NCBI GenBank assembly: GCA_042571515.1
Contig: JBHPHX010000001.1
Coordinates: 75,508 to 111,678 of the forward strand
Length of the DNA stretch: 36,171 nt
Direction: 5' to 3'
Source: Patescibacteria group bacterium
Lineage (GTDB): Bacteria > Patescibacteriota > WWE3 > UBA101185 > UBA10185
In this document: positions 3,335-36,171 of the stretch, in pieces
Position numbering within the stretch: the first letter of the stretch is position 1
How the letters are laid out: each line of letters begins with the position of its first letter
Notes under the pieces: model-generated
Database searches by the model: none
What the model was told of the DNA's origin: nothing
Seen by the model: only the letters and a program-made list of their open reading frames with translations
Position numbers and translations under genes: made by a program

Positions 3335-6300
3335 ATGCCTGCCCAAGGCCAAGCAAAAACACTATCATATCAGCCCCAATTAACTATTTCTAAGGCTGCA
3401 GTATTTTTGGGAATATCCCCCTCATCTCTCAGAAGGTATGAAAAAGAAGGTCGAATAACTACAAAACGACTAGAAAATGGGTACAGAGTATATTCTAAGG
3501 ATAACCTGGAGAGTTTAAGATCCAAACTCGAAATTGAAAGAAATCAAAGAAAAATTCAGATCCAAAAAAAAGCTATTGCTCGAAAAAAAGAATTGGAGAA
3601 ACTTCAAACGCAGCCGGAACCTGGGGTTATAAGATCAGACTTCGCAAAACCCTATTTGGCAAGTGGATTAAAAGTTTTTAGTTTAATCATTCTTTCAATT
3701 ACCCTATCCCTAGGAACGCTTTTTGTCCAGGATGATATTCCCTCTTTTTCAGGACAAATTGGCACTATCCTAGGCTTCAAAACTACAAAACCAGAAATGC
3801 AGGTTGGCTCTAGTGTAGAAGGTCAGGTTTTGGCAGATTATGACCTAAATAAAGAATACGAAATTAACTATAATATTCCTGCTACGTTCTTTGAAGGTGT
3901 AACCACAAACTCTATTTCTGGTGTAGAAATAATTGACACAACTACCGAGGATACCCTTGAAACAGCACTAGATATAGCTGGGGAGGTTGTTAGTACAGGT
4001 ATGCTATCTACTGTAATAGCAGATGGTGTCATAGATGGAGCTAATTTAATAGATGATTTTGAGTATGCGGGGGATGCGACGTTTAGTGGTGATACTACGT
4101 TCGGTGGTGAAGCTACATTTGAAGATAATGTATCCGTAGATGGGGAAACAGTGCTATCCGGAGATATTACACTAGAGGGAGATACTACAACAGAGGGTAC
4201 TTTTGACATAGATGGGGACTGGAGTATTTCTGGTACTGATGTAGACGCAACGGCAGATGAGCTCAACTCCATTGGTGGCGTAACAGATACTATAGCTATC
4301 ATTGATGGCTCTACTGTTACGGCAGGAGGGGTTATGTTTGGGAATGGAAGCATAATGACTCAGGATGCCGCGAATTTCTTTTGGGATGATACAAACAATT
4401 ACCTTGGACTTGGAAAAGCTAACCCAGCTTATGGACTAGATGTTGCAGGTACATTTAATGTAGATGGAGCAACTACACTTGATGGAGCGGTAACATTAGG
4501 AGATGCAACAGGTGATGATATAACAATAACAGGATATGTAGCATCAAATGTAATACCAAAAACTACCGATACCTATGACCTTGGCTTAAGTTCTGTTTCC
4601 AGAATGAATACCATGGATCAAGATCTTTCTGCTGCTGACGCTTCCTTTATTGGAGAAGATGCGGATGATTTTAGTGGCCATTTAGTCTCTTCAGCCGGTG
4701 ATGTTAATGGTGACGGTTATGATGATATTTTGATTGGGGCGGCTTGGGATTCCGACGGCATGGCGGCTGCGATGGCTGGTGAAACTTATCTAATCCTAGG
4801 CAAGGCTACGGGGTGGGCTATGGACACAGACTTATCGGCCGCTGATGCTTCCTTCATTAGTGAGGAGGCTACTGACAATAGCGGTTTTGCAGTCTCTTCC
4901 GCTGGTGATGTTAATGGTGATGGCTATGATGATATTTTGATTGGGGCTTGGGGTAATGATGACGGTGGCAATCCTTATGCCGGCCAGACTTATCTAATCC
5001 TAGGTAAAGCCACAGGCTGGGCCATGGATACGAATTTATCAACTGCCGATGCTTCATTTTGGGGTGAAAATGGCTGGGACAGAAGTGGTTTTGCAGTCTC
5101 TTCCGCTGGTGATGTTAATGGTGATGGCTATGATGATTTCGTCATTGGGGCCTGGGGCGATGACGATGGCGGCAACCTTGCTGGCCAGGCTTACCTTATC
5201 TTAGGTAAGGCTTCGGGCTGGGCCATGGATACTGATTTATCAGCTGTAGATGCTTCATTTTGGGGCGAGGCTGCTAGTGACTATGCTGGTTTCACAGTCT
5301 CTGCCGCTGGTGATGTTAACGGTGACGGCTATGATGATATGTTGGTAAGTGGTTATGGTAATAACCAGGTCTACCTTATCTTAGGTAAAGCTTCAGGTTG
5401 GGCCATGGATACCGATTTATCAGCCGTTGATGCCTCTTTTATTGGTGAGGGTAGTGGTCAGTACGTCGCCCTACGTACCGGACTTTCTTCAGCCGGTGAT
5501 GTTAATGGTGACGGTTATGATGATATTTTGATTGGGGCGGCTTATAACGATGATGGTGCCAATAATGCTGGCCAGACTTATCTAATCCTAGGTAAAGCTA
5601 CAGGCTGGGCCATGGATACGAATTTATCAACCGCTGACGCTTCCTTTTGGGGTGAGGTTGCTAGCGATCTTAGTGGTTATTCAGCCTCCTCAGCTGGTGA
5701 TGTTAATGGTGACGGTTATGATGATATTTTGATTGGGGCGGCTTACAATGACGATGGTGGCAGTGCCGCAGGTCAAACTTATCTTATTTTTGGAAAATCC
5801 TCGGGTTGGACTATGGATACGAATCTATCTGCTTCTGATGCCTCTTTCTGGGGTGAGGATACCAGTGATTATAGTGGTTATTCTGTTTCTGGTGCCGGGG
5901 ACACTAATGGCGACGGTTATGATGATATTTTAATTGGAGCCTTTGGTGATGATGATGGCGGCGAGAATGCAGGCCAAACATATTTGATTCTCTCCGATGG
6001 AAGTCAGTGGGATAATATATATGCTAGAAATGTAAAGGCTGGAGATTCTTTAAATGTAGGGGCTCATTTAAGATTACATCATGATACTATCCAGGCTTTG
6101 AGCCCCTTGTATTTAGATTCTACAAGAGTAAACGTTTTAGGTGGGTTAACTACTTTAGGGTATGTGGGTATAGGGTTCTCAGCACCAACTTCAGAACTTC
6201 ACATTGGAGGAACTACTCCCCTTTTAACAATAGGTGATGCGGGAGAAGAAGATACTGCTATGCTTTTTGATGGAGCTGCACAAGACTTTCACATTGGTCT

Positions 6301-9300
6301 TGATGATTCTTTAGATGATTTAGTTATCGGGACAGGATCAACTTTAGGTGCTGGTAACTTAGTAACTATTGAAAATGGAGGTAATGTAGGGATTGGAAAG
6401 ACTAATCCTGGGTATAACTTGGACGTTGCAGGTACATTTAATGTAGATGGAGCAACTACACTTGATGGAGCAGTAACATTAGGTGATGCAACAGGTGATG
6501 ATATAACAATAACAGGATATATAGCATCAGGTATTATTCCTAAAACAGATGATACATATGATCTAGGATCAGATGCATTAAGGTGGCAAAGTATATATGT
6601 AGGACCAGGATCTTTAAGTATAGGATCCTCTTCTCCAGATGAAGAATATACCCTATCCTGGGATGCAACAGAAAACTATCTTGGTTTTAACTACAATGCA
6701 TCAGGTAACCCTGAGATGGTTATTGATTCTTCAGGACAGGTGGGGATTGGAACGACAGCACCATCTTCGCAGCTTCAAGTAGCAGGAAACGTCGTTATTG
6801 GTGATGCCGCCACCGCCACAGACTACACTCTCACCTTTGATGGTGAAACTAATGATGGTGTTCTCACCTGGATGGAGAATGAAGACTATTTATTATTCAG
6901 CGACGATATTTACATGGCCTCCAGTCAAATCATATATTTTGACGGCGGGGGTGCAGCTCAAACGAATGGTGCTGGCCGTTTATATCTTACCGGACCAACC
7001 AGCATCGATTTTAGTTCTGGAATAGGTAACATAGATACAGTTTTGCGGTTTTTAGGGACTGATTATTCAGGTGTTCTCACCTGGATGGAAGACGAGGATT
7101 TGTTTTTATTTGATGACACTATAGAGATTAGAGGTACAGCTAAAAACCTTTTAATGACAGGGGTAGCCCACACTACCATATCTACTGATCCTATGCTTTC
7201 GATGGCAGCCAATGATTCTTTTCCTGTTGAAATGATTTCTGCTGGACCAGATAATAACGATAGCCCACTTATCAATTGGTTTAGAGCTAAAGGTACTCTG
7301 GAGGGTTCAGAAGCGGATGTTGTAGACGGTAACAGACTAGGAGCATTTCAGGCCAGAGCTTACGTGGGTGGGTGGCAACCAGCTTCAGCACAAATGAACT
7401 TTAGGGTTGATGGTGCACCAGGAACATATGCTCCAGGTTTGATTGAATTTACTGTAGGGGATGCAGATAATACTGCAGTTACCAGAACAGCTTTTCAGAT
7501 TAACAGTAATTTGAGTTCAAAAGCCTATGGTAATTTTACGATAGGAAATGGAGTAGCAACAACAGATTACACCCTCACCTTTGATGGTGAAACTAATGAT
7601 GGTGTTCTCACCTGGATGGAGGATGAAGACTACTTTCAGTTCTCTGATGAGATATTACTTCTAGACGGGGAGAAACTCATACTAGGTACTGGTAGCGACG
7701 GTACTCTTTACTCATCCTCTGATGATATCTACTTTGAAAATGATACCAGTGACAAAGATATCATCTTTAAGGTTAATGACGGGGGTGTAGATACTGAGGT
7801 AATGAGAATAGATTCCTCAACACCACAAATAGATTTTACTGTACTAGGGGTTAAAATTGGATCTGATACTTCTGAGTTTAACCCAACACTTACGTTCTCT
7901 GGTGTAGATAATGACGGCATTATAGGCTGGATGGAGGATGAAGACTACTTTTTGTTTCTTGATGACATTCTCCTTTTAGATGGTGAGAAACTAATCTTAG
8001 GGACTGGCTCTGACGGTACTCTTTACTCATCTTCTGATGATATATATTTTGAAAATGATACTCAAGATAAAGATATTATCTTTAAGATTAATGATAATGG
8101 TGTTGATACTGATATCTTGCATATTGATGGGAGTGAGTCCTGGATTGGTATAAGAACAGCTACTCCGCAGATGGGTATTGACTATGGTGGCGTGGGATCC
8201 TCGCATGGAACGTTTCTGTTTTCTGGGACTGCCGGTGGTGGCGGGGAGGGAATATCTTATGTAGATAGTGGCAGTGGTATGCGTAGAGCTATATCTTTCC
8301 CAGGAAGTGATCTTGTTGTACTCCAAAACAGAGCATCAAACGGTACAGTTGAGATAAGGGCTAATACATCAACAGCGGGCGAAAGTGGTGAACATACAAT
8401 TGGCACATTTGAAGATAACAAAATAACCATTGGGGACGGTCAAGCTGGAGTAGATTATCAATTAGCTTTCAATGGAGAAACTAACGACGGCCTCCTTACC
8501 TGGATGGAAGATGAAGATTACTTCCAGTTTGCCGATAATATAGTGGCACAAAATATTTTACCTGCGACAGATGATACATATGATTTAGGATCAGATGCAC
8601 TAAGATGGCAGAGTATATATGTAGGACCAGGATCTTTAAGTATAGGTTCCTCTTCTCCAGATGAGGAATATACCCTATCCTGGGATGCCACCTTAAACTA
8701 TCTTGGTTTTAACTACAATGCATCAGGTAACCCTGAGATGGTAATAGATTCATCAGGACAGGTGGGGATTGGGACTACGGCTCCAAGTACGGCTTTAGAC
8801 ATTGCCGGTACCGTCACTGCCACTGATTTTGCCTGCACAGACTGTTTGGAACAGGGAAATATCGCAAATAATGCCATTGGATACGGTGAATTAAAAATTG
8901 GCACCGGTTCTCAAGCGCTTAGTGATGATGCCAACGTAGACATGCATGAATACTCTTTCTTTCCCAACATGGAAAAAGATAATTGTGATAATGCTACTAG
9001 TCACGATTTGCAGATGTCTAATGATGATGAAACAGACAACACTGTCGGCCATTTCTATATTGATGTTAATAGCTCTTGTGGAGCAGGAGACGTCGATGTC
9101 CGCTGGAGCTACGTCACCTCCTCTGATCATCCTACTATCTGGACTATTATTGACTCTTTGGGCAACATCACCAAAAGCTGGGAAGCTGAGGATCCCACTG
9201 TCTATCCAGACAATCCCAATCCTCTTGCTGGTACCCCTCTTCAATCGGGAGAGTCATTCGCTTACGTTGAACCTCTAAGTATCTCCCAACTCAACACTAT

Positions 9301-10960
9301 TTATGCTTCTTTCCCTCAAACTGAGTATAATGCTATCTTTAGCGCTCTTAAACAATATTTGGTTGACGAAAGGCGCTTCCTCCCTTCCATGAGCTCCATT
9401 AATGATCTTAGCAATGTTCCCGATCGCTACCACTCAGCAGCTCGTTTCTGGGCTACCCGTTTTATCGCCAACCACTACGGTATCTCCCACTCTGAACTTA
9501 TAAAAAATACCATGTTTGTTATTTATGGGGATCTTACCCCCCAACCAAATTATTACACTTTTGTTTCTAACTATATTGACGAAAAAAACATTCAATTAGC
9601 TTCAATTAAAGTCAAGCAGGAACAACTTGATAACCTGCCCATCAACCAGAAACAGGCTGACATTGCCGAGTATTATTCCACTGGCAATAACACAAGGGAT
9701 CCAAAACCTGGAGATTTAATTTCTTTCAATCGTAAGGACAGCAGTTTTGTTACTCTAACTTCAAGATCCTATGACCCATATTTGATGGGGGTAATCTCTA
9801 CTTCTCCCCATGATACTCTGGGTCGCTCAACCGAGGATAATGATATTAAAGTTGCCTTGACAGGCAGGGCTCCTGTTAACATAAGTCCGTCAAGTGAGGC
9901 AATTGAACCTGGCGATCCAATTACATCTTCCAACACCAGTGGCTTGGGAACTAAAGCCCTAAAGCCCGGTTATGTAGTTGGTCGGGCTCTTGAATCCTGG
10001 CAGCCAGACTCAGACAAAAAATCGGTTTTAGTCCACCTTAACCTTCACTACTATGATCCTGATATTATGTTGGCAAAAAGTGATATAGACCTATTTACCT
10101 TCTCTTCAACAACTGATATAGACACTGGGGCTATTGACTTTCAACTCTTTAATCCCAATGATACCGCGGTTAGTAAAATCAACGCTTTTCAACATTTAGT
10201 CTCGGCCAATATCTCTTCGGGCTCTATTGAATCAGAGATCGTTACCGCCGACACCCTTAATATTCGGGGCCTGACCCTTGATGACTATATAGGCTCTGCT
10301 ATTCAAGGGGATCGGGAGCTGATTGAGGCTTTGCAGACAGAACAAGAGTTGGAGTGGGATAGTATAAATACTAGAGTAGATAACATAGAGGCATTATTGG
10401 AGGAATTGACTTCTGAAACTCAGGAAACAAGTGAATCTACAGAAACCCCGATAGAAACTCCATCTGAAATACTAGCTTCAATACAAAACATATTTGAGGA
10501 ATTTAAAACCTTTATAGCAGCACTGGGGCTATCCGCAACAGAAGAAACCGGGCTTGTTGTTGAAGTAGATATGAATGTACTTGGAGACACCACACTAGGA
10601 GACGTGGTAGTTACAGGGGACATACTAGCAGGACTGATTGAAATAAATACCCTAGATAACTTCATAAATATAAATAACATGATACTTCTTAAGGAAGATG
10701 GGACTGTGGAAGCCGAAAAACTTTCACTAAGTACCAACGTCTTGGGAACCTCCACAATTATAAAAGACGAAACTAAAGTAACAGTGGAAACCACCGCTAT
10801 AACAACCTCGTCTAAGGTCTTTGTCACTCCAACCATTGCAACTGATAGGGCGCTGGCCGTAACGGAAGTTAATGAGGGGGATGGGTTTGTAGTCGAGATA
10901 GGATCCTCTTCTAGCGAGGATATAGAGTTTAATTGGTTTATCGTAGACTCAAGAGAGTAA
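3335..10960 (+). CDS. Giant (2541 aa) membrane-anchored modular surface protein: MerR-type HTH, TM, FG-GAP propeller, tail-fibre-like repeats, IMC-like domain, coiled coil, C-terminal beta domain
   Basis: LTISKAAVFLGISPSSLRRYEKEG..R.ENGYRVY (HTH); VFSLIILSITLSLGTLFV (TM); 7x AGDxNGDGYDD; GxVGIGxxxP repeats; ADIAEYY...VVGRALESW; C-terminal ...EDIEFNWFIVD. Confidence 0.9.
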   Translation: MPAQGQAKTLSYQPQLTISKAAVFLGISPSSLRRYEKEGRITTKRLENGYRVYSKDNLESLRSKLEIERNQRKIQIQKKAIARKKELEKLQTQPEPGVIRSDFAKPYLASGLKVFSLIILSITLSLGTLFVQDDIPSFSGQIGTILGFKTTKPEMQVGSSVEGQVLADYDLNKEYEINYNIPATFFEGVTTNSISGVEIIDTTTEDTLETALDIAGEVVSTGMLSTVIADGVIDGANLIDDFEYAGDATFSGDTTFGGEATFEDNVSVDGETVLSGDITLEGDTTTEGTFDIDGDWSISGTDVDATADELNSIGGVTDTIAIIDGSTVTAGGVMFGNGSIMTQDAANFFWDDTNNYLGLGKANPAYGLDVAGTFNVDGATTLDGAVTLGDATGDDITITGYVASNVIPKTTDTYDLGLSSVSRMNTMDQDLSAADASFIGEDADDFSGHLVSSAGDVNGDGYDDILIGAAWDSDGMAAAMAGETYLILGKATGWAMDTDLSAADASFISEEATDNSGFAVSSAGDVNGDGYDDILIGAWGNDDGGNPYAGQTYLILGKATGWAMDTNLSTADASFWGENGWDRSGFAVSSAGDVNGDGYDDFVIGAWGDDDGGNLAGQAYLILGKASGWAMDTDLSAVDASFWGEAASDYAGFTVSAAGDVNGDGYDDMLVSGYGNNQVYLILGKASGWAMDTDLSAVDASFIGEGSGQYVALRTGLSSAGDVNGDGYDDILIGAAYNDDGANNAGQTYLILGKATGWAMDTNLSTADASFWGEVASDLSGYSASSAGDVNGDGYDDILIGAAYNDDGGSAAGQTYLIFGKSSGWTMDTNLSASDASFWGEDTSDYSGYSVSGAGDTNGDGYDDILIGAFGDDDGGENAGQTYLILSDGSQWDNIYARNVKAGDSLNVGAHLRLHHDTIQALSPLYLDSTRVNVLGGLTTLGYVGIGFSAPTSELHIGGTTPLLTIGDAGEEDTAMLFDGAAQDFHIGLDDSLDDLVIGTGSTLGAGNLVTIENGGNVGIGKTNPGYNLDVAGTFNVDGATTLDGAVTLGDATGDDITITGYIASGIIPKTDDTYDLGSDALRWQSIYVGPGSLSIGSSSPDEEYTLSWDATENYLGFNYNASGNPEMVIDSSGQVGIGTTAPSSQLQVAGNVVIGDAATATDYTLTFDGETNDGVLTWMENEDYLLFSDDIYMASSQIIYFDGGGAAQTNGAGRLYLTGPTSIDFSSGIGNIDTVLRFLGTDYSGVLTWMEDEDLFLFDDTIEIRGTAKNLLMTGVAHTTISTDPMLSMAANDSFPVEMISAGPDNNDSPLINWFRAKGTLEGSEADVVDGNRLGAFQARAYVGGWQPASAQMNFRVDGAPGTYAPGLIEFTVGDADNTAVTRTAFQINSNLSSKAYGNFTIGNGVATTDYTLTFDGETNDGVLTWMEDEDYFQFSDEILLLDGEKLILGTGSDGTLYSSSDDIYFENDTSDKDIIFKVNDGGVDTEVMRIDSSTPQIDFTVLGVKIGSDTSEFNPTLTFSGVDNDGIIGWMEDEDYFLFLDDILLLDGEKLILGTGSDGTLYSSSDDIYFENDTQDKDIIFKINDNGVDTDILHIDGSESWIGIRTATPQMGIDYGGVGSSHGTFLFSGTAGGGGEGISYVDSGSGMRRAISFPGSDLVVLQNRASNGTVEIRANTSTAGESGEHTIGTFEDNKITIGDGQAGVDYQLAFNGETNDGLLTWMEDEDYFQFADNIVAQNILPATDDTYDLGSDALRWQSIYVGPGSLSIGSSSPDEEYTLSWDATLNYLGFNYNASGNPEMVIDSSGQVGIGTTAPSTALDIAGTVTATDFACTDCLEQGNIANNAIGYGELKIGTGSQALSDDANVDMHEYSFFPNMEKDNCDNATSHDLQMSNDDETDNTVGHFYIDVNSSCGAGDVDVRWSYVTSSDHPTIWTIIDSLGNITKSWEAEDPTVYPDNPNPLAGTPLQSGESFAYVEPLSISQLNTIYASFPQTEYNAIFSALKQYLVDERRFLPSMSSINDLSNVPDRYHSAARFWATRFIANHYGISHSELIKNTMFVIYGDLTPQPNYYTFVSNYIDEKNIQLASIKVKQEQLDNLPINQKQADIAEYYSTGNNTRDPKPGDLISFNRKDSSFVTLTSRSYDPYLMGVISTSPHDTLGRSTEDNDIKVALTGRAPVNISPSSEAIEPGDPITSSNTSGLGTKALKPGYVVGRALESWQPDSDKKSVLVHLNLHYYDPDIMLAKSDIDLFTFSSTTDIDTGAIDFQLFNPNDTAVSKINAFQHLVSANISSGSIESEIVTADTLNIRGLTLDDYIGSAIQGDRELIEALQTEQELEWDSINTRVDNIEALLEELTSETQETSESTETPIETPSEILASIQNIFEEFKTFIAALGLSATEETGLVVEVDMNVLGDTTLGDVVVTGDILAGLIEINTLDNFININNMILLKEDGTVEAEKLSLSTNVLGTSTIIKDETKVTVETTAITTSSKVFVTPTIATDRALAVTEVNEGDGFVVEIGSSSSEDIEFNWFIVDSRE
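4442..6529 (+). repeat. Near-identical 105-bp intragenic direct repeats (4442-4546 and 6425-6529)
   Basis: Both encode VAGTFNVDGATTLDGAVTLGDATGDDITITGY(V/I)AS, with only a few nucleotide differences. Confidence 0.9.
4604..5992 (+). repeat. Seven tandem ~200-bp FG-GAP (integrin-alpha-like) repeats within the giant ORF
   Basis: AGD(V/T)NGDGYDD cores near 4691, 4898, 5101, 5303, 5490, 5691 and 5891; most are followed by YLILGKAxGWAMDT. Confidence 0.9.
6545..8772 (+). repeat. Near-identical 206-bp intragenic direct repeats (6545-6750 and 8567-8772), enclosing further repeats (DGxLTWMEDEDY about 5x; LLDGEKLILGTGSDG... 2x)
   Basis: Both encode TDDTYDLGSDALRWQSIYVGPGSLSIG...PEMVIDSSGQVGIG; differences are mostly at third codon positions. 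Confidence 0.9.
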
Positions 10961-11075: not shown

Positions 11076-11306
11076 TTAGATATTCCTTAAAATTAATAAA
11101 CTGTACGTTAACGAACATAGGCTCAAAAATAATCCAGTAAGTACCTTCAATAGATCAATACTAACATTGCCAAAAATGGAAGGCAACACAAAGGAGCCAA
11201 TAAAAAGCATACCCAGGTCTGAAAATGTTCCTGATATTCTTTCCAGTTGTAATCTAGAAAATGTAGGGGTGATTTTCTTGAATTTTATATAAATTATCCT
11301 TTTCAT
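11076..11306 (-). CDS. Small two-TM hypothetical membrane protein
   Basis: 76-aa ORF coupled to the comM stop (ATGA overlap); two hydrophobic segments. Confidence 0.65.
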   Translation of the reverse strand: MKRIIYIKFKKITPTFSRLQLERISGTFSDLGMLFIGSFVLPSIFGNVSIDLLKVLTGLFLSLCSLTYSLLILRNI

Positions 11307-12829
11307 AACTTAACCCTATATTGCAGCGCCTCGGCAATATGCTCCCTTTTAATATCCTCACTACTCTCCAAATCTGCAATAGTTCTAGCTACTTTAATAA
11401 TTTTAAAATATGCCCTGGCAGAAAGATTAAATTTTGTCACAGCTTGCTTCAAAATTATGTCAACTTCCTTAGATAAAACACAAAATTTACTCATATTCCT
11501 GTTTTCCATCTCTGCATTAGTAAAAATCCCCAGTCCAACAAAACGCTTGGATTGCATTTTTCTAGCCAAAGATACCTTATTTAATATGTCCCTGGATGTA
11601 TATTTGTCTACTTTTTTCTTTTTATTAAGAGACAATTCTTCCACTTCCACTGGAGACACCTGGACATGCAAATCGATTCTGTCTAATATTGGCCCTGAGA
11701 TCTTTTTGCTGTAACGGTTCACTTGAAACTGAGTACATTCACAATCTTTTTTTGGGTGATTAAGATATCCGCAGGGACATGGGTTGCTGGCAGCCACCAA
11801 AATAAATCTACATGGAAAAGTAATCGCACTATTACTCCTGGAAATTGTTATTTCTCCATCTTCAATGGGTTGTCTCAAACTTTCTAGTACATGTCTTGGA
11901 AATTCAGAAAACTCATCTAGAAATAACACTCCCCTATGCGCCAAACTTATCTCTCCTGGTTTAGGATACGATCCTCCACCAATCAAACCGGCATATGAAG
12001 TTGTGTGATGTGGAGTTCTACACTGTCTATTTGAAATAAGAGACTTGTTTGGAGCAATATAACCAGCTGAGGAATATATTTTAGTTACCTCCAAACTTTC
12101 CTCAAATGTTAATGTAGGCAGTATAGAAGGAAGGGCCTTAGCAAGCATAGTCTTTCCTCCTCCTGGAGGACCTATCATAAGAACGTTATGGCCGCCTGCT
12201 GCAGCAATCTCTAGGGCTCGTTTTGCCTTTTGTTGCCCTAAAATGTCTCCCATATCAAGCGGGTTATTGCCCGGCGAAAACCCGCGATTATTTAAAACAA
12301 ATTTTGTGGGCTTGATCTTCACAGACCCAACAAGATGGGAAAATAAGGCATCCAAACTTTCAACCCCAAAAACCTCAACTCCCTTAATAGCCGCTGCTTC
12401 TTGAGCACAACTTTTGGGAACAAAGACTTGTTTTATACCCTTTTCTCTTGCAAAAATTGATACTAGTAAGCTTCCTCTTGTATGGCGCAAACTTCCATCC
12501 AATGAGAGCTCACCATAAAATATAGACTTCTCCGGTATCTTCGCTTCCGTAATAGCAGACATTAATCCGGCTGCAATAGGTAAATCGTAAAAAGATCCTT
12601 CTTTGGGAAGATCTGCTGGTGCTAAATTTATGGTTATTTTTCTATTGGGAAAGTCAAAATCAGAATTTATTAGCGCTGTTTTGACCCTATCTCTGCTTTC
12701 AGCTACGGCTTTACTGGGAAGTCCAACAATGTCAAACCTAGGCATTCCCCTACTTGCAATATTGGCCTCCACCTCTACTCCAATAGTATCAATACCATAA
12801 TTTGCCGCTGAATTTACTTTAATCAACAT
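11303..12829 (-). CDS. comM: YifB/ComM Mg-chelatase-family AAA+ ATPase
   Basis: IVGLP..AVAESRDRV, ITINLAPADLPKEGS.YDL, GPPGGGKT, PGEISLAHRGVLFLDE, NPCPCG, EALQYR. True start at 12829 with a GGAGG RBS. Confidence 0.95.
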   Translation of the reverse strand: MLIKVNSAANYGIDTIGVEVEANIASRGMPRFDIVGLPSKAVAESRDRVKTALINSDFDFPNRKITINLAPADLPKEGSFYDLPIAAGLMSAITEAKIPEKSIFYGELSLDGSLRHTRGSLLVSIFAREKGIKQVFVPKSCAQEAAAIKGVEVFGVESLDALFSHLVGSVKIKPTKFVLNNRGFSPGNNPLDMGDILGQQKAKRALEIAAAGGHNVLMIGPPGGGKTMLAKALPSILPTLTFEESLEVTKIYSSAGYIAPNKSLISNRQCRTPHHTTSYAGLIGGGSYPKPGEISLAHRGVLFLDEFSEFPRHVLESLRQPIEDGEITISRSNSAITFPCRFILVAASNPCPCGYLNHPKKDCECTQFQVNRYSKKISGPILDRIDLHVQVSPVEVEELSLNKKKKVDKYTSRDILNKVSLARKMQSKRFVGLGIFTNAEMENRNMSKFCVLSKEVDIILKQAVTKFNLSARAYFKIIKVARTIADLESSEDIKREHIAEALQYRVKL

Positions 12830-13676
12830 AATACTTTCCTCCCTCCTCAAAAATCTGACCCGACAAAAGTAACATTGTAATTTCCGCCCCAACTTCAGAG
12901 GCTCCCAAACCCAATGTTTCACATAATATGTCCATATCCATTGGTTCTCTGGCCAAGCTAGACACAATCTCACTTCTTAAGGCATCACCAACAGAAACCT
13001 CTTTGAAAATAGGCAGGTCTTCGTAACCTCGACCAAATACATTTAATATGTCCTCTGCGTTTCTCACTAGCATAGCCCCAGAAGAAATAAGGTTATTTGC
13101 GCCAACGGAAGTAGATGACGTAATTTGCCCTGGGACTGCCAAAAGCTCTCTTCTAAACTCTCTGGTTAATCCCGCAGTAATAAGAGATCCACTCTTTTTT
13201 GCCGCCTCAACAACCAAGGTGGCCTGAGAAATACCTGCCACTATCCTATTTCTTTTTGGGTAAGTCCATAGTTGGGGTCTCACATCTCCGGGGTATTCCG
13301 AAATGACGAGACCCCCACTATCTAAAATCTCGTAGTACAAATCCTGTTGGTGGTCGGGGTTGATACACTCCACACCGCACGCCAAAACGGCTATTGTCTT
13401 GCCTTTAGCTGCTAGCGACGCCCTGTGGGCAGTGGCATCTATACCGTACATAAATCCGGAAACTACAGTCACACCTCGACTGGCCACCTCATACACCAGC
13501 TTTTCTGTAACCCTCCTTCCATATACTGTCATCCTCCTACTTCCCACTACGGCAAGGCAGTTGTCAAACAGGCTTCTATCCCAGTTTCCCTTATAGTAGA
13601 GCACTTCCGGAGGATCGGGTATTTCTTTAAGTAGTGTGGGGTACGTGGAACTATCTACGCTAACAGAACCGTACAT
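12819..13676 (-). CDS. dprA: DNA-processing protein DprA
   Basis: YPTLLKEIPDPP, AVVGSR, VSGFMYGIDATAH, RNRIVAG, VVEAAKKSGSLITA, C-terminal winged helix. Alternative start at 13688. Confidence 0.95.
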   Translation of the reverse strand: MYGSVSVDSSTYPTLLKEIPDPPEVLYYKGNWDRSLFDNCLAVVGSRRMTVYGRRVTEKLVYEVASRGVTVVSGFMYGIDATAHRASLAAKGKTIAVLACGVECINPDHQQDLYYEILDSGGLVISEYPGDVRPQLWTYPKRNRIVAGISQATLVVEAAKKSGSLITAGLTREFRRELLAVPGQITSSTSVGANNLISSGAMLVRNAEDILNVFGRGYEDLPIFKEVSVGDALRSEIVSSLAREPMDMDILCETLGLGASEVGAEITMLLLSGQIFEEGGKYYVD

Positions 13677-13714
13677 AATCAAAAACATACACGCTGTAAT
13701 TACAGGTGGAAATA

Positions 13715-22434: not shown

Positions 22435-23373
22435 TTAATCTATTACGCTCTCTATTTCCTCTTTGAAGTTGGTGTCTCCAAAGGCTTCTGCATCTTTTTT
22501 CAACTGTTCCTTTGAGACAACAAATAATCCATGCATTTCCTCCTTGTTAGCGTATATGGTGTCCTCATCTGTCAAAATAAGACAGAGTTGGGCATCCGTT
22601 TGTTCTGCCGGAGTTAGTCTTAGCGCTTTCTCAAAAAAGTTCTTGTCAACACTTCTTGCATAAATGTGAAGGGCTGCAAAGGGTTTGATTGGCTTGTGCA
22701 AGGACAGGCCCGCATTAAGGGTAAACGCATAGTCCTTATCTGCATCTCGTGCACTTTTATCAATATTCTGTGCAATTTCCTTTAAACCACCTAGCATGCT
22801 TCTGTAGTAAAGAAAGGATGGGGTTTGTTTCTCGGGTTTTGGGGCTGGGGCCGGCTCAGGTGCTGGTTCGTCACCACCCAATGAGGCTACTTCTTCCTTG
22901 GGGGGAGCAGGTTGCTCCTCCTTGAATTTGTTGGCTGCCTCTCTGAATTTTGCTAACCAATCTACATCTTCCTCAGTTTGGCTGGGTTGTTCCGCGGGGG
23001 GTGCAGGGGGTGGAGGAGGTGGAGCTGGAGGAGAAACTGGTTGTTTCTCGACCTTTGGTTCAGGAACGGGATCTGGAACTACTGGGGCTTTTGGAGCAGG
23101 GGGAGTTGGTTCAGAAACAGGTTTAGCCTGAACAACAGGGAGCGCCAGGGCCTCTTCTTCCTCAACTTCAAGTTCTGCTGCAACTTGATCTGGGACACCG
23201 CTAGGATACAAAAAGTCTAAAATATTATCTTTTGTAAACCTATGTCTGCCAGTAGCTGTCTTAACGTCAGCAATTAATTTTCCATCCTCCAAGTATCTGT
23301 AGACGGAGCGGAGGCTAACTCCAAGAATTTTGGCCACTTCCGTGGTCGTATAAAGTTTATCTTCTAATTTCAT
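22435..23373 (-). CDS. Excisionase/MerR-type HTH protein with Pro-rich linker and AbiEi-like C-terminal domain
   Basis: YTTTEVAKILGVSLRSVYRYLEDGKL..T.TGRHRF; PPAPPPPPPAPP; YAFTLNAG..LHIYA...GLFVVSKEQLKKD. Upstream TTGACA-17 bp-TTTCAT. Confidence 0.75.
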   Translation of the reverse strand: MKLEDKLYTTTEVAKILGVSLRSVYRYLEDGKLIADVKTATGRHRFTKDNILDFLYPSGVPDQVAAELEVEEEEALALPVVQAKPVSEPTPPAPKAPVVPDPVPEPKVEKQPVSPPAPPPPPPAPPAEQPSQTEEDVDWLAKFREAANKFKEEQPAPPKEEVASLGGDEPAPEPAPAPKPEKQTPSFLYYRSMLGGLKEIAQNIDKSARDADKDYAFTLNAGLSLHKPIKPFAALHIYARSVDKNFFEKALRLTPAEQTDAQLCLILTDEDTIYANKEEMHGLFVVSKEQLKKDAEAFGDTNFKEEIESVID

Positions 23374-24312: not shown

Positions 24313-25317
24313 CTAGTCCTTTATCATACTCTTACTAAATATTTCTAGATTTTCTATGGATCTACCCAAACCTTGAACCACGCAATAGAGGGGATCATCT
24401 GCTAAATGAGCAGGGACGCCGGTAAAAGAACTAATATATTTGTCTAGGTTTTTCAGTAGGGCGCCTCCCCCACTTAGGACAATACCTTTGTCTATAATAT
24501 CTGATGCTAATTCTGGCGGGGTTTTCTCCAAAACATTTTTCACACCTGAAGCAATACTTGAAATGGGAGACTCTAGACAAGAGACAACCTCTGTGGAAGT
24601 AAGGTTAATAGTTTTGGGAAACCCGGAGATAGAGTCTCTACCCTTCACCTCCATACTTTGCTCCTTGTGCAGTGGAACCGCAGCACCAATCGTAATTTTG
24701 ACATTCTCTGACATGTTAGGACCAATTACTAGCCCGTGCTGGCGTCTGACATACTGTGCTATTGCCTCATCTAAAGTGGTACCTCCAATCCTTATGCTTC
24801 CATGCACAACCATGCCATATAGCGAAACAATCGCGATTTCCGTAGTTCCGCCGCCTATATTTACAATCATATTGCCGCTTGCCTCCGAAACTGGCAGTCC
24901 AGCCCCAATGGCAGCAGCCAGCGGCTCAGGCATTAGGTAGGCTTTGCGTGCTCCAGCGGAATAAGCTGCCTCAATAACAGCACGTGCCTCCACGGAAGTG
25001 GCCCCAGCTGGAATGGAAATCATAACATCGGGTTTAAGTAACCTGGATCTGCCTATGGCTTTACCAACAAAATATCTAAGAAGGGCTTCCGTGACTAGAT
25101 AGTCTGCAATAACTCCACTGCGCAAAGGCTTCAGGGCCTCAATATTCTCCGGCGTTTTACCCAGCATATTGCGGGCTTCTTCTCCCACCGCAACTATTTT
25201 TTCGTCATCTTTGGAAATAGCCACAACGGTTGGCTCTTTTAAAATCACACCCTTGCCGGAAACATACACTATAGAGTTGGCAGTACCTAGATCAATAGCA
25301 ATTTTTCTCGAAAGCAT
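24313..25317 (-). CDS. mreB: Rod shape-determining actin homolog MreB/Mbl
   Basis: IAIDLGTANS, EPTVVA, GVIADY, EPLAAAIGAGLP, IGGGTTE, TPPELASDI, LSGGGALL. Confidence 0.95.
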   Translation of the reverse strand: MLSRKIAIDLGTANSIVYVSGKGVILKEPTVVAISKDDEKIVAVGEEARNMLGKTPENIEALKPLRSGVIADYLVTEALLRYFVGKAIGRSRLLKPDVMISIPAGATSVEARAVIEAAYSAGARKAYLMPEPLAAAIGAGLPVSEASGNMIVNIGGGTTEIAIVSLYGMVVHGSIRIGGTTLDEAIAQYVRRQHGLVIGPNMSENVKITIGAAVPLHKEQSMEVKGRDSISGFPKTINLTSTEVVSCLESPISSIASGVKNVLEKTPPELASDIIDKGIVLSGGGALLKNLDKYISSFTGVPAHLADDPLYCVVQGLGRSIENLEIFSKSMIKD

Positions 25318-31436: not shown

Positions 31437-32150
31437 TCAATCAATAAAAACCTCAATACTTCCTTCCATGTCTGTTCTTAGAACCTCACATTCAATTTCC
31501 CTTAAAAAACTTAATACTTCTTGGTGGGGGTGACCATACATATTTCCTTTACCTACAGGGATTAGGCAGTATTTTGGACGAAGATGTAGCAGGAATTCCT
31601 TATTTAACGCGTTTTTTGCACCATGATGTGGAACCTTATAAACTTCCAAAGGACCGTCAATGTAGTAATCCAATCTTTCCATATTTATATAACTCTGGCC
31701 CTCGCTTTCTAGATCACCCATAAAAAGTGCCTCAAAGTTTCCATAATCTAACAGTACAATAATAGATGAGTTATTTTCGTCACAAGTTTTACAAGGCTGA
31801 AAAATTACAAGCGTGACATCCCCCCATTTGTAGACAGATTTTTGTGGCCACCCAAGCTTGCAATATGTAGAAAGTCTCTCCAACCCCCGCTTATGATCCG
31901 CATGGGGGTGGGTGAGTACCACCAGATCCAAATTGCATGTTCCGAAAGGGGACTCTTTCCTCAAATGTCTAGAGATTTCATAGTTTGGCCCGCCGTCAAT
32001 AAGAGCTTTTCCCCAGGGAGTTCTTATATAAACTGCATCCCCCTGACCTACATCAAAAACCCTTATTGAGAACGGGTGGTTTTGATTACGGAGGGTATAA
32101 ACCCCTATACAGAAGCAGATGAGAAATAAATACACTTTTACTTGCGACAT
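31437..32150 (-). CDS. ComEC-associated metallo-beta-lactamase-fold nuclease (stand-alone)
   Basis: FDVGQGDA, LIDGG, LTHPHADH, NNSS, LFMGD, KVPHHG, YGHPH, RTD. Confidence 0.88.
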   Translation of the reverse strand: MSQVKVYLFLICFCIGVYTLRNQNHPFSIRVFDVGQGDAVYIRTPWGKALIDGGPNYEISRHLRKESPFGTCNLDLVVLTHPHADHKRGLERLSTYCKLGWPQKSVYKWGDVTLVIFQPCKTCDENNSSIIVLLDYGNFEALFMGDLESEGQSYINMERLDYYIDGPLEVYKVPHHGAKNALNKEFLLHLRPKYCLIPVGKGNMYGHPHQEVLSFLREIECEVLRTDMEGSIEVFID

Positions 32151-33136
32151 TTTACTAACATAAAGACAAAAAAGTAGTAAATAATAAGAAATTTCAACCC
32201 AATTGTAATGCCAATTGAGGCGTGAGGCACTTTGGAAAAAAATTCCACAACGGTGGTGAAATACTCCAGAGGCATGTACGCTAGTAGTCCTACAGCCTCA
32301 TTAATAATCGGTATAGCTCCCACCATAATTAACACTCCACCAAGAATTGTTGTCAACGGCACAGTCCAGAGGATAAGAAAATTAACTAAAGGTGAAATCA
32401 GACTTATCGTACCAAAGCTGTACGAAATCAACGGCCAAACCAGCACCTGGGCCGCCAGGGTGGCACTTAAATCCTCTATTAACACCCCCTTAGCCTCTAA
32501 TCTCTTTTCTAAGAAGCTTTGAACTGGATTAGCAAATAGGACCAGGCCCAGAGTGGCTAGGAAACTGAGTTGAAAGCTCAATGAAAACAAATACAGGGGA
32601 TTGATTACAAGCATAACTAGGGCCGAAAATACAAGAACAGCTTGGACAGGGATCTTGCGTCCGTAGTACTTTCCTAAGGTAAAAATACTACCCATTATCC
32701 AAGCCCTAATAACCGGGGGGTCAAATCCGGAAATTACCGCGTATCCAAGAGTGCAAATTACCGCAGGTAATAAATTTTTTATTTTGTAAGGTTGGCCGAA
32801 GATTCTAAAGATCAGAGTGTAGACCAAACTAATATTGAACCCGGAAACAACTACGACGTGGATGGTCCCAGTTTCTCGAAGCATGTCGTTAAACGTAGGT
32901 AAGAAGGAAAAATAATTGGCACCAATTGTCATCCCTAACAAAAGCTCGCTATGTGGGCTAGGTAGTAAACTATTCACGACTTCTTGGGAATATTTATGAA
33001 CATCCTCAACCCATTTGTATGACGAGTCTCCCCTATCCTGAGACATAATCACACAATTTTTGAGGGATCTTTGGCATACATTGTCTAGTCTGAAAAGGAC
33101 AAAAATAACCAAAAAAGCAAAAATAATTTTACTCAT
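32138..33136 (-). CDS. comEC: ComEC/Rec2 competence membrane domain
   Basis: GTIHVVVVSGFNI, PPVIRAWIM, NP.YLFSLSFQLSFLATLG. Confidence 0.9.
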   Translation of the reverse strand: MSKIIFAFLVIFVLFRLDNVCQRSLKNCVIMSQDRGDSSYKWVEDVHKYSQEVVNSLLPSPHSELLLGMTIGANYFSFLPTFNDMLRETGTIHVVVVSGFNISLVYTLIFRIFGQPYKIKNLLPAVICTLGYAVISGFDPPVIRAWIMGSIFTLGKYYGRKIPVQAVLVFSALVMLVINPLYLFSLSFQLSFLATLGLVLFANPVQSFLEKRLEAKGVLIEDLSATLAAQVLVWPLISYSFGTISLISPLVNFLILWTVPLTTILGGVLIMVGAIPIINEAVGLLAYMPLEYFTTVVEFFSKVPHASIGITIGLKFLIIYYFFVFMLVKCRK

Positions 33137-33799: not shown

Positions 33800-33824
33800 A
33801 ATATTCTAGTTAAACTAGAATATT
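33800..33824. promoter_or_regulatory. Palindromic box ATTCTAG-N5-CTAGAAT upstream of comEA
   Basis: aatattctagtt-a-aactagaatatt; the 19-bp core is identical to the 14405 copy. Confidence 0.6.
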
Positions 33825-33909
33825 AATTAACGCATATTCCCCGCAAACCTACCCCTATTATGGACTTGTAAGTAACATTATTCCCGCATATTTCCCGCGA
33901 AAGGTTTAC

Positions 33910-33938
33910 AAAAGAGAAGACGCCATCTAAATGACGCC
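33910..33938 (-). terminator. Intrinsic terminator after the ArsR gene
   Basis: Minus strand ggcgtcat-ttag-atggcgtc followed by ttctctttt. Confidence 0.6.
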
Positions 33939-33961
33939 TTATCTTAGGAAGAGGTAACCTT

Positions 33962-34258
33962 CTAGTTACCTTCCATTGCCTTTATTAGTATTTCCTCAAA
34001 AGCAGGGTTTTTCTTGAGATCTTTTATCAAGGAGACGAATCTCGCCTCGTTGAGTTTATAAAAGACCTCTCTACCTCTTTTATTATTTTTCAGAAATCCA
34101 AGTGAAGCCAAAACTCTAAGGTGGTGAGAAGCTAGGTTCTCCTCCACATTTAGCTTGTCTGCCACCCAACTTACGTTCTGGGGGCCTTCACTCAGGAATC
34201 TTAAAATTTTTAGCCTGTTCTTGTCGGAAAAAGCCTTTGAAATTTTTTCCTGATTCAT
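33962..34258 (-). CDS. ArsR/SmtB family transcriptional regulator
   Basis: KAFSDKNRLKILRFL, ASHHLRVL, RGREVFYKL. Confidence 0.9.
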   Translation of the reverse strand: MNQEKISKAFSDKNRLKILRFLSEGPQNVSWVADKLNVEENLASHHLRVLASLGFLKNNKRGREVFYKLNEARFVSLIKDLKKNPAFEEILIKAMEGN

Positions 34259-34331
34259 GTATTCAATATATAACATTAATTGGGACAATTCAACTAGTTA
34301 CAAACTATCTTTGGTGATACAATATTTGCAT

Positions 34332-34985
34332 ATGAAAAACTATATTGAGGTAAACCAATTAGTAAAGAAACTAAAAAGTAAAAAGGTGGATTTGGGAAAA
34401 GGAGATCCTTACAACAGGTTGAGGTATTACACAAAGATTGGGTGGCTTCCACATATGGAAAGAAAACAGGCCAAATCAGGCTCTGTCAAGGGCCATTATC
34501 CCGTCTGGGTGCTTTCAAGGCTAATATTAATAGATGATTTAAAAAAGAGGGGCTTTAGTAATAAAGAAATAGGTGAAAAAATTAACACTCGCACCAAACT
34601 TCAGGATCTTTACACAAAAGTTAACTCGCCTCGTATAAAAAGCAGGATTACCACCTACCTAATTTTGATTTTGTTAATATTTATACTTCTTAGTGAACTA
34701 GGGGTTATTAATATATCCAAACCCAAAAATACCACTGTTGTTTTAAGCGAATTTATAACCATCTTGGACAGTGGAAACTCAACTGTTCCTTTATACAATG
34801 ATAGAACTTTTATAAGAAGTGCCTTTATAGATGAGGAATCGAAGATATATGTTACCTTCACACAGGATTATTCCCCCGCAAATAGGTATTGGGTGGGTGA
34901 AATTGAACCTGGCAAAGGATTTTACTTAAGATTAGATGCTCCCGTGAAGAGCAATTCGGATTTTTCTTGGTGGATCAGCAATTAA
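34332..34985 (+). CDS. MerR-type HTH + TM + C-terminal beta domain shared with the giant protein
   Basis: RLRYYTKIGWLP..GHYP..LSRLILIDDLKKRGFSNKEI; YLILILLIFILL (TM); SKIYVT..GKGF..DFSWWI. Confidence 0.8.
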   Translation: MKNYIEVNQLVKKLKSKKVDLGKGDPYNRLRYYTKIGWLPHMERKQAKSGSVKGHYPVWVLSRLILIDDLKKRGFSNKEIGEKINTRTKLQDLYTKVNSPRIKSRITTYLILILLIFILLSELGVINISKPKNTTVVLSEFITILDSGNSTVPLYNDRTFIRSAFIDEESKIYVTFTQDYSPANRYWVGEIEPGKGFYLRLDAPVKSNSDFSWWISN

Positions 34986-35017
34986 AGACATCTTTCCCGT
35001 TACGGGAAAGTGTTATA

Positions 35018-35046
35018 TTGACACTTTGTAATCCTCAAACTACAAT
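35018..35046 (+). promoter_or_regulatory. Sigma70 promoter
   Basis: TTGACA-17 bp-TACAAT, preceded by hairpin ctttcccg-tta-cgggaaag (34992-35010). Confidence 0.75.
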
Positions 35047-35076
35047 AAATATAGTTAATCATTTATAAGGAGGAAA

Positions 35077-36171
35077 ATGAATAAATCCGAATTTAATTTA
35101 GACAAGGTTTTTGGAGTACTGTTAGCCCTTTTGGTGTTCTTAATGCCCGTGTTCTTTCTGCCAATCACCACAGAGTTTTTTGAATTTAACAAGTTAATGC
35201 TATTGACTGGGTTTTCCATAATTCTAACTGTATTGTGGATTGTCAAAATCGTACAGAAAAAAGGCCTGGGTGTTGTTAAGTCTGTTATTGATCTTCCGCT
35301 GTTCCTTTTCACCGCTGTAACCGTTCTTTCTGCAATCTTTTCCCTAAACAAAGATACTAGTATCTTTGGAAGTCAGGGGCGCTGGTTTCCAAGTATGTTT
35401 TCGATACTTGTGATGTACGTATTTTATTACATCCTTACAGCAAATCTTAAAGGAAGGGGGGCTATTAAGGCGGTTGTTTACTCCCTCCTAGCCGGGGCCA
35501 CAGCCTCAAGCCTAGTCACTCTATTTAGCTACTTTGGAATGTATGTTGGGTCCGCTTCTTATCTAAAAACACCTTCATTTAATACAACAGGATCTGGAGC
35601 AACTGCTTCAATTTTGGCGGCACTGGGAGCAATAATAGCCTTTTCATCCCTAATATATGAAACAAGAATATCGAGCAAACTTGCGCTTGTTGTTTCTATT
35701 GTTGTTAACTTCTTCCTAGCGTTACTCATCCCATCTTCTGCCTCTTGGGCAGTGTTAGTCATTGGCGGGTTGGGAATTTTGCTTTTCTCAAGTTTTGATC
35801 TAATAAAGAAAAATGGAGTAATTCTTAATATGGTCGCGGGTATAATGCTGGCGCTTACTTTAATGGTACTCTCCCCTACCACTAGAGATTTTATTGTAAA
35901 TGAGAACCATCCACAGGAGCTCAAGCTATCCCCAAAACAGTCCTGGATAATTGCTTCCTCTACAATTCGAGACTTTCCACTACTGGCAACGGGCCCCTCC
36001 TCCTTTTACCTAAATTTTCCACGTTACAGGGCTATTTCTATGAATACAGGTGATTTTTGGAATCTGAATTTTGACAAACCATACAACGAAGTGTTCAATA
36101 GTGTCGCAACCTTAGGTATTGTCGGAACTATTGCCGGAGTATTTCTAGCTATGAAAATGTTAAAAACTTTA
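35077..36171 (+). CDS. Polytopic O-antigen-ligase-like membrane protein, truncated by the window end
   Basis: AGGAGG RBS; MNKSEFNLDKVFGVLLALLVFLMPVFFLPITTEFFEFNK..., many TM helices, PLLATGPSSF..F.RYR...DKPYNE..ATLGIVG. No stop before the edge. Confidence 0.8.
   Translation, partial: MNKSEFNLDKVFGVLLALLVFLMPVFFLPITTEFFEFNKLMLLTGFSIILTVLWIVKIVQKKGLGVVKSVIDLPLFLFTAVTVLSAIFSLNKDTSIFGSQGRWFPSMFSILVMYVFYYILTANLKGRGAIKAVVYSLLAGATASSLVTLFSYFGMYVGSASYLKTPSFNTTGSGATASILAALGAIIAFSSLIYETRISSKLALVVSIVVNFFLALLIPSSASWAVLVIGGLGILLFSSFDLIKKNGVILNMVAGIMLALTLMVLSPTTRDFIVNENHPQELKLSPKQSWIIASSTIRDFPLLATGPSSFYLNFPRYRAISMNTGDFWNLNFDKPYNEVFNSVATLGIVGTIAGVFLAMKMLKTL

Follow-up and report, generated by a model that had tools for sequence, protein, structure and literature searches.

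The small gene near the end of the window (the whole 36,171-nt stretch of DNA analyzed here, from a genome of the candidate division WWE3) encodes a protein with a MerR-type helix-turn-helix (HTH) domain, a single transmembrane (TM) helix, and a terminal domain predicted to be a small β-sandwich. Our best explanation, to which we give a probability of about 0.5, is that this protein is a single-pass transmembrane transcription regulator controlling the ligase-like gene located downstream. The cytoplasmic MerR-type winged HTH would bind a conserved palindrome, TTCYCGT-N-ACGRGAA, whose center lies about 50 bp upstream of the likely start of the ligase gene. The trimeric tailspike-type ectodomain would be the outward-facing part on the outer face of the membrane, and the expression of the ligase gene would be set by what this ectodomain meets outside, such as a surface glycan or a contact. 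The positions of all features are listed in Table 1.

Table 1. Location of the small gene, its domains, and the neighboring and related features in the window.
Feature	Position	Strand	Remarks
Giant gene	3335-10960	+	2541 aa; MerR HTH, hydrophobic segment, seven FG-GAP repeats, end domain
Homologous end domain of the giant	10703..10957	+	BLASTP, profile, hhalign; Pfam K1-lyase_C 19.6 bits, E 1.3e-3, cut-off 27
ArsR/SmtB-type regulator	33962..34288	-	Divergent; variable neighbor (8/25 and 8/59 loci)
Extended -10-like element TGATACAAT (TGnTAnnnT)	34315-34323	+	Putative function; 8 nt before ATG 34332
Small gene	34332..34985	+	217 aa; HTH-TM-β-sandwich protein, conserved WWE3 family
MerR-type winged HTH, residues 1-97	34332..34622	+	Pfam, model, invariant residues; presumably cytoplasmic
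Single TM helix, residues 100-122	34629..34697	+	Model; continuous with the preceding helix
End domain, residues 134-217	34731..34982	+	Predicted six-stranded β-sandwich, tailspike C-terminal / K1-lyase_C type; trimer predicted
Perfect 19-bp palindrome CTTTCCCGTTACGGGAAAG, core TTCCCGT-T-ACGGGAA	34992-35010		Candidate operator; 7 bases after the stop of the small gene
Promoter-like TTGACA-17-TACAAT (11 of 12)	35018..35046	+	For the downstream gene; begins after 7 nt from the palindrome
Wzy_C-like membrane protein, 5' part (365 aa)	35077..36171	+	Runs off the contig; Wzy_C E 5e-5, under the cut-off

The start of the small gene at 34332 is supported by the extended -10-like element that precedes it and that implies a leaderless, or nearly leaderless, mRNA. 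An element of the same type was found at most 30 nt from the start at 27 of 53 related loci, and the methionine at 34332 matches the starts of the 32 aligned homologues, except for a few with N-terminal extensions. A start at the ATG at 34257, which would add 25 residues and give a protein of 242 aa, was unsupported, the 120 homologues listed being 208 to 237 aa long. In a subset of the relatives (loci L089, L091, L094, L095, L102-L105, L107, L116, L117, L126, and L149), the small gene is not leaderless but is preceded by some 40 nt of leader, in which a conserved CTGCCCC(A)AA element lies 10-20 nt upstream of the start.

The N-terminal 60 residues are the best conserved part of the small family (32 aligned sequences), in which G22, G24, P26-Y32, T34, K35, G37, W38, M42, R44, G54, H55, and P57 are invariant. 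The protein of the window matched Pfam MerR_1 with 18.6 bits (E 0.0021), the cut-off being 21.6; a match at E ≤ 0.01 was found in 30 of the 32 family members, with a best value of 3e-8, and PF13411 is precomputed for many relatives of the small protein. The model of this region has helices at residues 7-16 and 26-34, a hairpin (strands 42-46 and 52-57), and helices at 58-72 and 77-97, which is the MerR-type order, with a low confidence (pLDDT 47-66 for residues 1-60). In the full-length model, for which confidence was high in the sandwich and low in the HTH, helix 77-97 runs into the membrane helix with no cytoplasmic domain after it, and a six-stranded sandwich occupies residues 144-216. Because arginine and lysine residues precede the TM helix and the homologous domain is extracellular, the protein presumably has an N-in topology with the sandwich outside. 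Transmembrane transcription regulators (TTRs) are recognized by a DNA-binding domain that shares a polypeptide with one or more TM helices, a combination that the small protein has. A fold search with the full-length model returned the matches of the end domain again and, in addition, only BrlR, a member of the MerR family, at a probability of 0.28. Profiles of the whole family and of the end domain gave only chance-level matches among solved structures (antibody chains at E ≥ 0.013 and the MerR structure 4ua1 at E 0.059), and neither NCBIfam nor PHROGs held a family for the small protein or its end domain.

Relatives of the small protein are numerous, with 368 found at E ≤ 1e-3, and those listed are near 220 aa long and 44-56% identical. 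A single copy, full-length or cut by a contig end, was present in 26 of 41 related genomes, and 22 of the 24 same-family genomes had a match. The small-type HTH alone was found in three further genomes, in two cases on larger ORFs (1783 and at least 492 aa) and in one beside a masked stretch. The small gene is a single-copy core gene of WWE3.

The original prediction had drawn attention to a divergent ArsR regulator and to the comE genes as neighbors of the small gene. Both are present in the window, but they are not its conserved neighbors: the ArsR gene is variable (Table 1) and ComEA lies upstream at 13 of 59 loci, against 51 of 59 loci with a Wzy-like gene directly downstream on the same strand. 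Likewise, a homologue of the downstream gene was found on the same strand at 22 of 25 loci of relatives, and two of the other three loci stop at a contig edge; the counts out of 59 come from 62 full-length loci of species representatives, a set that overlaps these 25. Full-length relatives of the downstream protein are 757-763 aa long, with a Wzy_C domain and C-terminal TPRs, one of them matching Wzy_C with 41.7 bits in addition to TPR. Two fairly complete genomes, G014 and G027, have neither the small gene nor the Wzy gene, and contig ends interrupt the pair in G006 and G013. In a sister family without the small gene, the Wzy-like gene lies behind an M23 peptidase, with no palindrome. This gene order indicates that the small gene and the co-oriented Wzy_C+TPR gene, which is O-antigen-ligase/polymerase-like, form a cassette.

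Other genes of the window were also annotated. ComEC appears as two overlapping ORFs (31437-33136, minus strand), with the Competence domain at 32138-33136 and the metallo-β-lactamase part at 31437-32150. A 312-aa protein encoded at 22435-23373 (minus strand) starts with an HTH_17 domain, after which comes a long Pro/Glu-rich stretch, and no membrane segment was seen in it by eye. Its gene sits between a starch-synthase-type glycosyltransferase gene and a WecG-type glycosyltransferase gene adjoining MreB.

Between the small gene and the Wzy-like gene lies the perfect palindrome, followed by the promoter-like sequence, a Shine-Dalgarno-like AAGGAGG, and the ATG at 35077. When up to two mismatches were accepted, the core TTCYCGT-N-ACGRGAA was found within 260 nt after the small gene at 56 of 62 loci, and TTGAC followed it after 6-9 nt, most commonly 8 nt, at 43 of these 56. 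Eight loci had no flagged downstream Wzy gene, six of which were also without the palindrome. By hand count, 31 of the 56 sites have TTCCCG on the left and CGAGAA on the right, which gives a C·A mismatch in the middle of the stem when read as coding-strand RNA and thus favors a DNA site over a terminator hairpin. No Rfam match was found for positions 33800-35300 at E ≤ 1.

The end domain was modeled alone with 45 sequences, and a pLDDT of 93.8 was obtained. The C-terminal domains of three phage tailspike depolymerases were its best structural matches, namely 9k4a_A (Z 10.5, rmsd 4.6, 80 aligned), 7w1c_A (Z 9.1, rmsd 3.3, 79 aligned), and 7eea_A (Z 8.5, rmsd 4.2, 75 aligned), followed by a match with Z 6.7. 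According to a warning of the structure tool, models that have no true relatives commonly reach a best Z of 7-8 by chance. The same tailspike proteins came out on top with Foldseek (best E 6.4e-3, none at E ≤ 1e-3). The small protein of the window gave no match to Pfam K1-lyase_C (PF24146) at E ≤ 0.1, whereas 4 of the 32 small-family members matched it at E ≤ 0.01; the cut-off of 27 was passed by the relatives P0189 (32.7), a small-family variant with an insert, and P0214 (28.1), both strong matches of the end-domain profile. In these models, the end domain is a small β-sandwich of the phage-tailspike C-terminal type (K1-lyase_C). A tblastn search of P0189 against 50,697 phage records returned no match.

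In K1 lyase, three such sandwiches make a dome at the trimer axis (PMC8822698). Prediction of the ectodomain of the small protein as a homotrimer gave a score of 0.93, against 0.00 for the best of three controls, with contacts agreeing at 91% or more between runs and a partner pLDDT of at least 88. In the calibration of this score, 20 of 30 proteins with structures solved as pairs of one chain reached the mark, compared with 1 of 23 single-chain structures; since solved tailspike trimers exist, the score may reflect likeness only. The predicted interface involves the conserved segments 38-56 and 79-83, and it contains the segment that distinguishes small from large end domains, YSPAxRYW in the former and a shorter T/S-rich stretch in the latter. 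The ectodomain probably forms, as far as such modeling goes, a trimer on the outer face of the membrane.

This end domain is widely distributed. Its profile recovered 4540 carriers at E ≤ 1e-3, 1330 of them at E ≤ 1e-10, from 1.84 billion cluster representatives, and the domain ended at most 10 residues from the C-terminus in 138 of the top 150, whose lengths range from 58 to 6147 aa. In the related genomes, large ORFs (665 to 8840 aa) carry it at their extreme C-terminus. A Pfam scan of 25 of the top 150 carriers, selected because a hydrophobic segment lies within their first 260 residues (one carrier was omitted as too long), detected a MerR HTH in 4, an N-terminal Phage_int_SAM domain in 3, K1-lyase_C in 6, and Peptidase_S74, located 250-370 residues before the end, in 10. 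Peptidase_S74 is the self-cleaving chaperone of endosialidase, and Pfam did not report it in the giant of the window at E ≤ 0.1. The other anchors among the carriers included Phage_int_SAM with a TM segment or signal-like N-termini. The end domain is thus a general module that closes thousands of Patescibacteria surface proteins with varied N-terminal anchors. In P0232, P0250, and P0254 (1720-1908 aa), a phage-integrase SAM-like DNA-binding domain comes first and a hydrophobic segment follows at about residue 140; therefore, at least two kinds of DNA-binding domain may be found on the cytoplasmic end of such surface proteins.

The original prediction had presented the small protein as a miniature version of the giant protein encoded in the same window, with the same layout (MerR-like HTH and TM segment) and an alignable terminal domain. 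The likeness itself was confirmed. BLASTP aligned residues 118-215 of the small protein with residues 2450-2536 of the giant (27/98 identities, 28%, E 4e-5), and the terminal motifs originally quoted are present in this alignment. When the whole genome, translated in six frames, was searched with a profile built from 32 small-family members, the last 80 residues of the giant were also recovered (E 1.5e-9, 36.3 bits). The pairwise HMM alignment that had been proposed, performed with hhalign between 25 small ectodomains and 21 large-protein C-termini, gave a probability of 98.8% (E 8.2e-17, 72 columns), a figure inflated because the large set was chosen with the small-family profile. The giant matches Pfam MerR with an E-value of 6.3e-10 and has a hydrophobic segment from about residue 113. 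The suggested class of proteins with an HTH, a TM segment, a variable part, and an end domain also holds, for a Pfam MerR HTH is followed by a hydrophobic segment at about 115-150 and, at the last residues, by the end domain in the giant of the window and in all four complete giants of relatives (4/4, 1804-8840 aa). The reading as a miniature was not supported: the end domain is promiscuous, as described above, and a profile of the HTH of the small family found no giant HTH at E ≤ 1 in the related genomes. The small protein belongs to a separate family with its own HTH subtype, and the giant shares with it only the common end module and the general layout. A search with the C-terminus of the giant returned a single homologue near its length, P0122 (2995 aa, WWE3). 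ComM and DprA lie directly after the giant in the window (11303-13688, minus strand) and directly beside the small gene in G015 (L052 7956-10365), so that competence genes recur near both the small protein and the giant, without a fixed order.

The palindrome is not restricted to the cassette. In the genome that contains the window (G000), TTCYCGT-N-ACGRGAA occurs in 4 exact copies and in 11 copies with at most one mismatch, compared with means of 0.06 and 0.51 and maxima of 2 and 4 for 199 permuted palindromes. The exact copies are located at 34994-35008 of the window and at G000:C2:47644, C2:90750, and C5:20408, and 7 more have one mismatch. Ten of the 11 copies are inside long ORFs, and the idea that these coding-region palindromes encode one conserved peptide was rejected, as the phases, the peptides, and the proteins all differ. 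Some relatives contain 7-25 copies, against 0-1 for a reversed control in the five genomes examined closely (up to 3 copies of this control across all 41 genomes), and in G015, 24 of 25 copies fall inside genes of many functions. Among the 41 genomes, the count is 0-1 in those families of the class that lack the small-type HTH, an association of motif and gene that follows phylogeny, with kin that are not independent. Nine genomes with the small gene have only 0-3 copies, and G027 (97% complete) has 24 copies, although no small gene and no Wzy gene were detected there, making another binder of the palindrome possible. Since most copies lie inside unrelated genes, the simple operator model fails to explain the genome-wide copies. 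This intragenic palindrome is a separate signal that could point to a chromosome-organizing system.

These copies form the basis of a different and quite unlikely explanation, in which the small protein would be a chromosome-to-membrane tether: its anchored HTH would bind the dispersed palindromes, in a Noc-like manner or as a segregation anchor, and the copy next to its own gene would be one of many. ParB and Noc bind at sites that are spread over genes of varied function, in more than one frame. The strong over-representation of the palindrome, its multiple copies in relatives, and their position in genes of many functions and in different reading frames, like such sites, agree with this explanation, as does a search of 11 genomes of the class for ParB_N, which gave no match in any of them, with or without the small gene (ten of them 92-100% complete, and G000 75.5%). 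ParB or Noc themselves were dropped as the explanation of the palindrome, given this absence of ParB_N and the fact that the consensus sequences of canonical parS and of the Noc site had no match within one mismatch in G000. The corresponding expectation that genomes without the small gene would have ParB failed, since sister families without the small gene also lack ParB_N, and the resulting lack of a complementary pattern speaks against a tether, as do the many copies in G027 and the low copy number in nine carriers of the small gene. A doubtful extension of the same idea is that a trimeric membrane DNA anchor, with HTHs bound to the scattered 15-17 bp palindrome, might pin the WWE3 chromosome to the envelope, with the copy at the ligase promoter coupling glycan synthesis to anchoring or to a lectin-like contact of the ectodomain. 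The small protein may alternatively bind no DNA in practice and be an envelope structural or adaptor subunit, as a partner of the Wzy_C+TPR protein or a RodZ-like scaffold, with an HTH that contacts a protein and a palindrome bound by another factor. We consider this unlikely. RodZ has an identical layout (HTH, one TM helix, and a small outside β-domain), the small gene is tightly paired with the gene of a membrane enzyme, an MreB gene is present in the window (24313-25317), and a search of 4 same-family genomes, G000 included, detected no RodZ_C; however, the HTH is MerR-type with an invariant helix-wing pattern in the family, matches to the RodZ families were not obtained, G025 has a RodZ_C protein and the small gene together, and the conserved palindrome adjoins the small gene.

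The role suggested by the original prediction, in which the small protein works with the giant fiber by nucleating it, capping it, co-trimerizing with it via the end domain, or regulating its gene, is very improbable. The two end domains are homologous, both proteins are membrane-anchored with the HTH inside, and wherever the small gene and a large carrier are on one contig, they are 10-27 kb apart and on the same strand (G000, G008, G010, G015, G023, and G026), but this regional linkage may simply be inherited gene order. In the search of the 41 related genomes with the profile of 32 small-family members, 12 genomes had the small gene and no detected large carrier. Moreover, an end domain is already present on the giant, the predicted interface includes the segment in which small and large end domains differ, and the domain is present on thousands of unrelated carriers, so that an end domain common to the small protein and the giant fiber is no evidence of partnership. 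The proposal that the small protein regulates the system may be right, but the system would be the downstream ligase-like gene, as no copy of the palindrome was found near the promoter or the start of the giant gene. Regulation of the ligase-like gene remains our preferred reading, although a DNA site with two-fold symmetry is a poor match for a trimeric ectodomain.

Several known systems resemble parts of the small protein. With the proteins that carry K1-lyase_C (PF24146; PDB 7w1c, 9k4a, and 7eea), it shares the predicted fold, the very C-terminal position, and the predicted trimeric packing. Unlike in tailspikes, the sandwich directly follows a membrane helix, without a β-helix or fiber, and the protein is cellular, not viral. 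The order of parts is that of RodZ, whereas the class of HTH and the outside domain differ, HTH_25 and RodZ_C not being among the Pfam matches of the small protein at E ≤ 0.1. A likeness to Noc would exist only if the tether were real, as a membrane-associated protein with dispersed, mostly intragenic palindromes; in contrast to Noc, the small protein has no ParB domain, and a true TM helix replaces the amphipathic link.

The small protein has in common with the MerR family the N-terminal HTH, the wing, and the two helices that follow, together with a palindromic candidate site of about 17 bp. It differs from canonical MerR proteins in having no cytoplasmic effector domain, and the helix that would normally be part of the dimer coiled coil enters the membrane. 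The canonical operator is located inside a long promoter spacer of 19-20 bp, whereas here the promoter has a 17-bp spacer and the candidate site precedes its -35 box. TnrA and GlnR are small MerR-family members that act from sites upstream of -35. No description of the small family or of the palindrome was found in a search of the full-text literature, and neither MerR nor helix-turn-helix occurs in the main text of a preprint on giant genes.

Few regulators can be recognized in the tiny genomes of WWE3 and other Patescibacteria, which are epibionts that have not been cultured. The class that the small protein most resembles under our preferred reading is that of the TTRs, such as ToxR, TcpP, and CadC, surveyed in PMC10269533; MerR and Patescibacteria are both absent from the main text of this survey, and its supplementary tables may list MerR-type TTRs. 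As in these regulators, a cytoplasmic DNA-binding domain, a single TM helix, and an outside domain are joined in one polypeptide, and the gene lies beside its likely target. The differences concern both ends of the protein, the DNA-binding domain being MerR-type and not an OmpR-type winged helix, and the outside domain being a tailspike-type β-sandwich that is predicted to be a trimer. A conserved, single-copy regulator with such an outside domain beside a glycan ligase gene would represent a testable circuit for the control of the cell surface.
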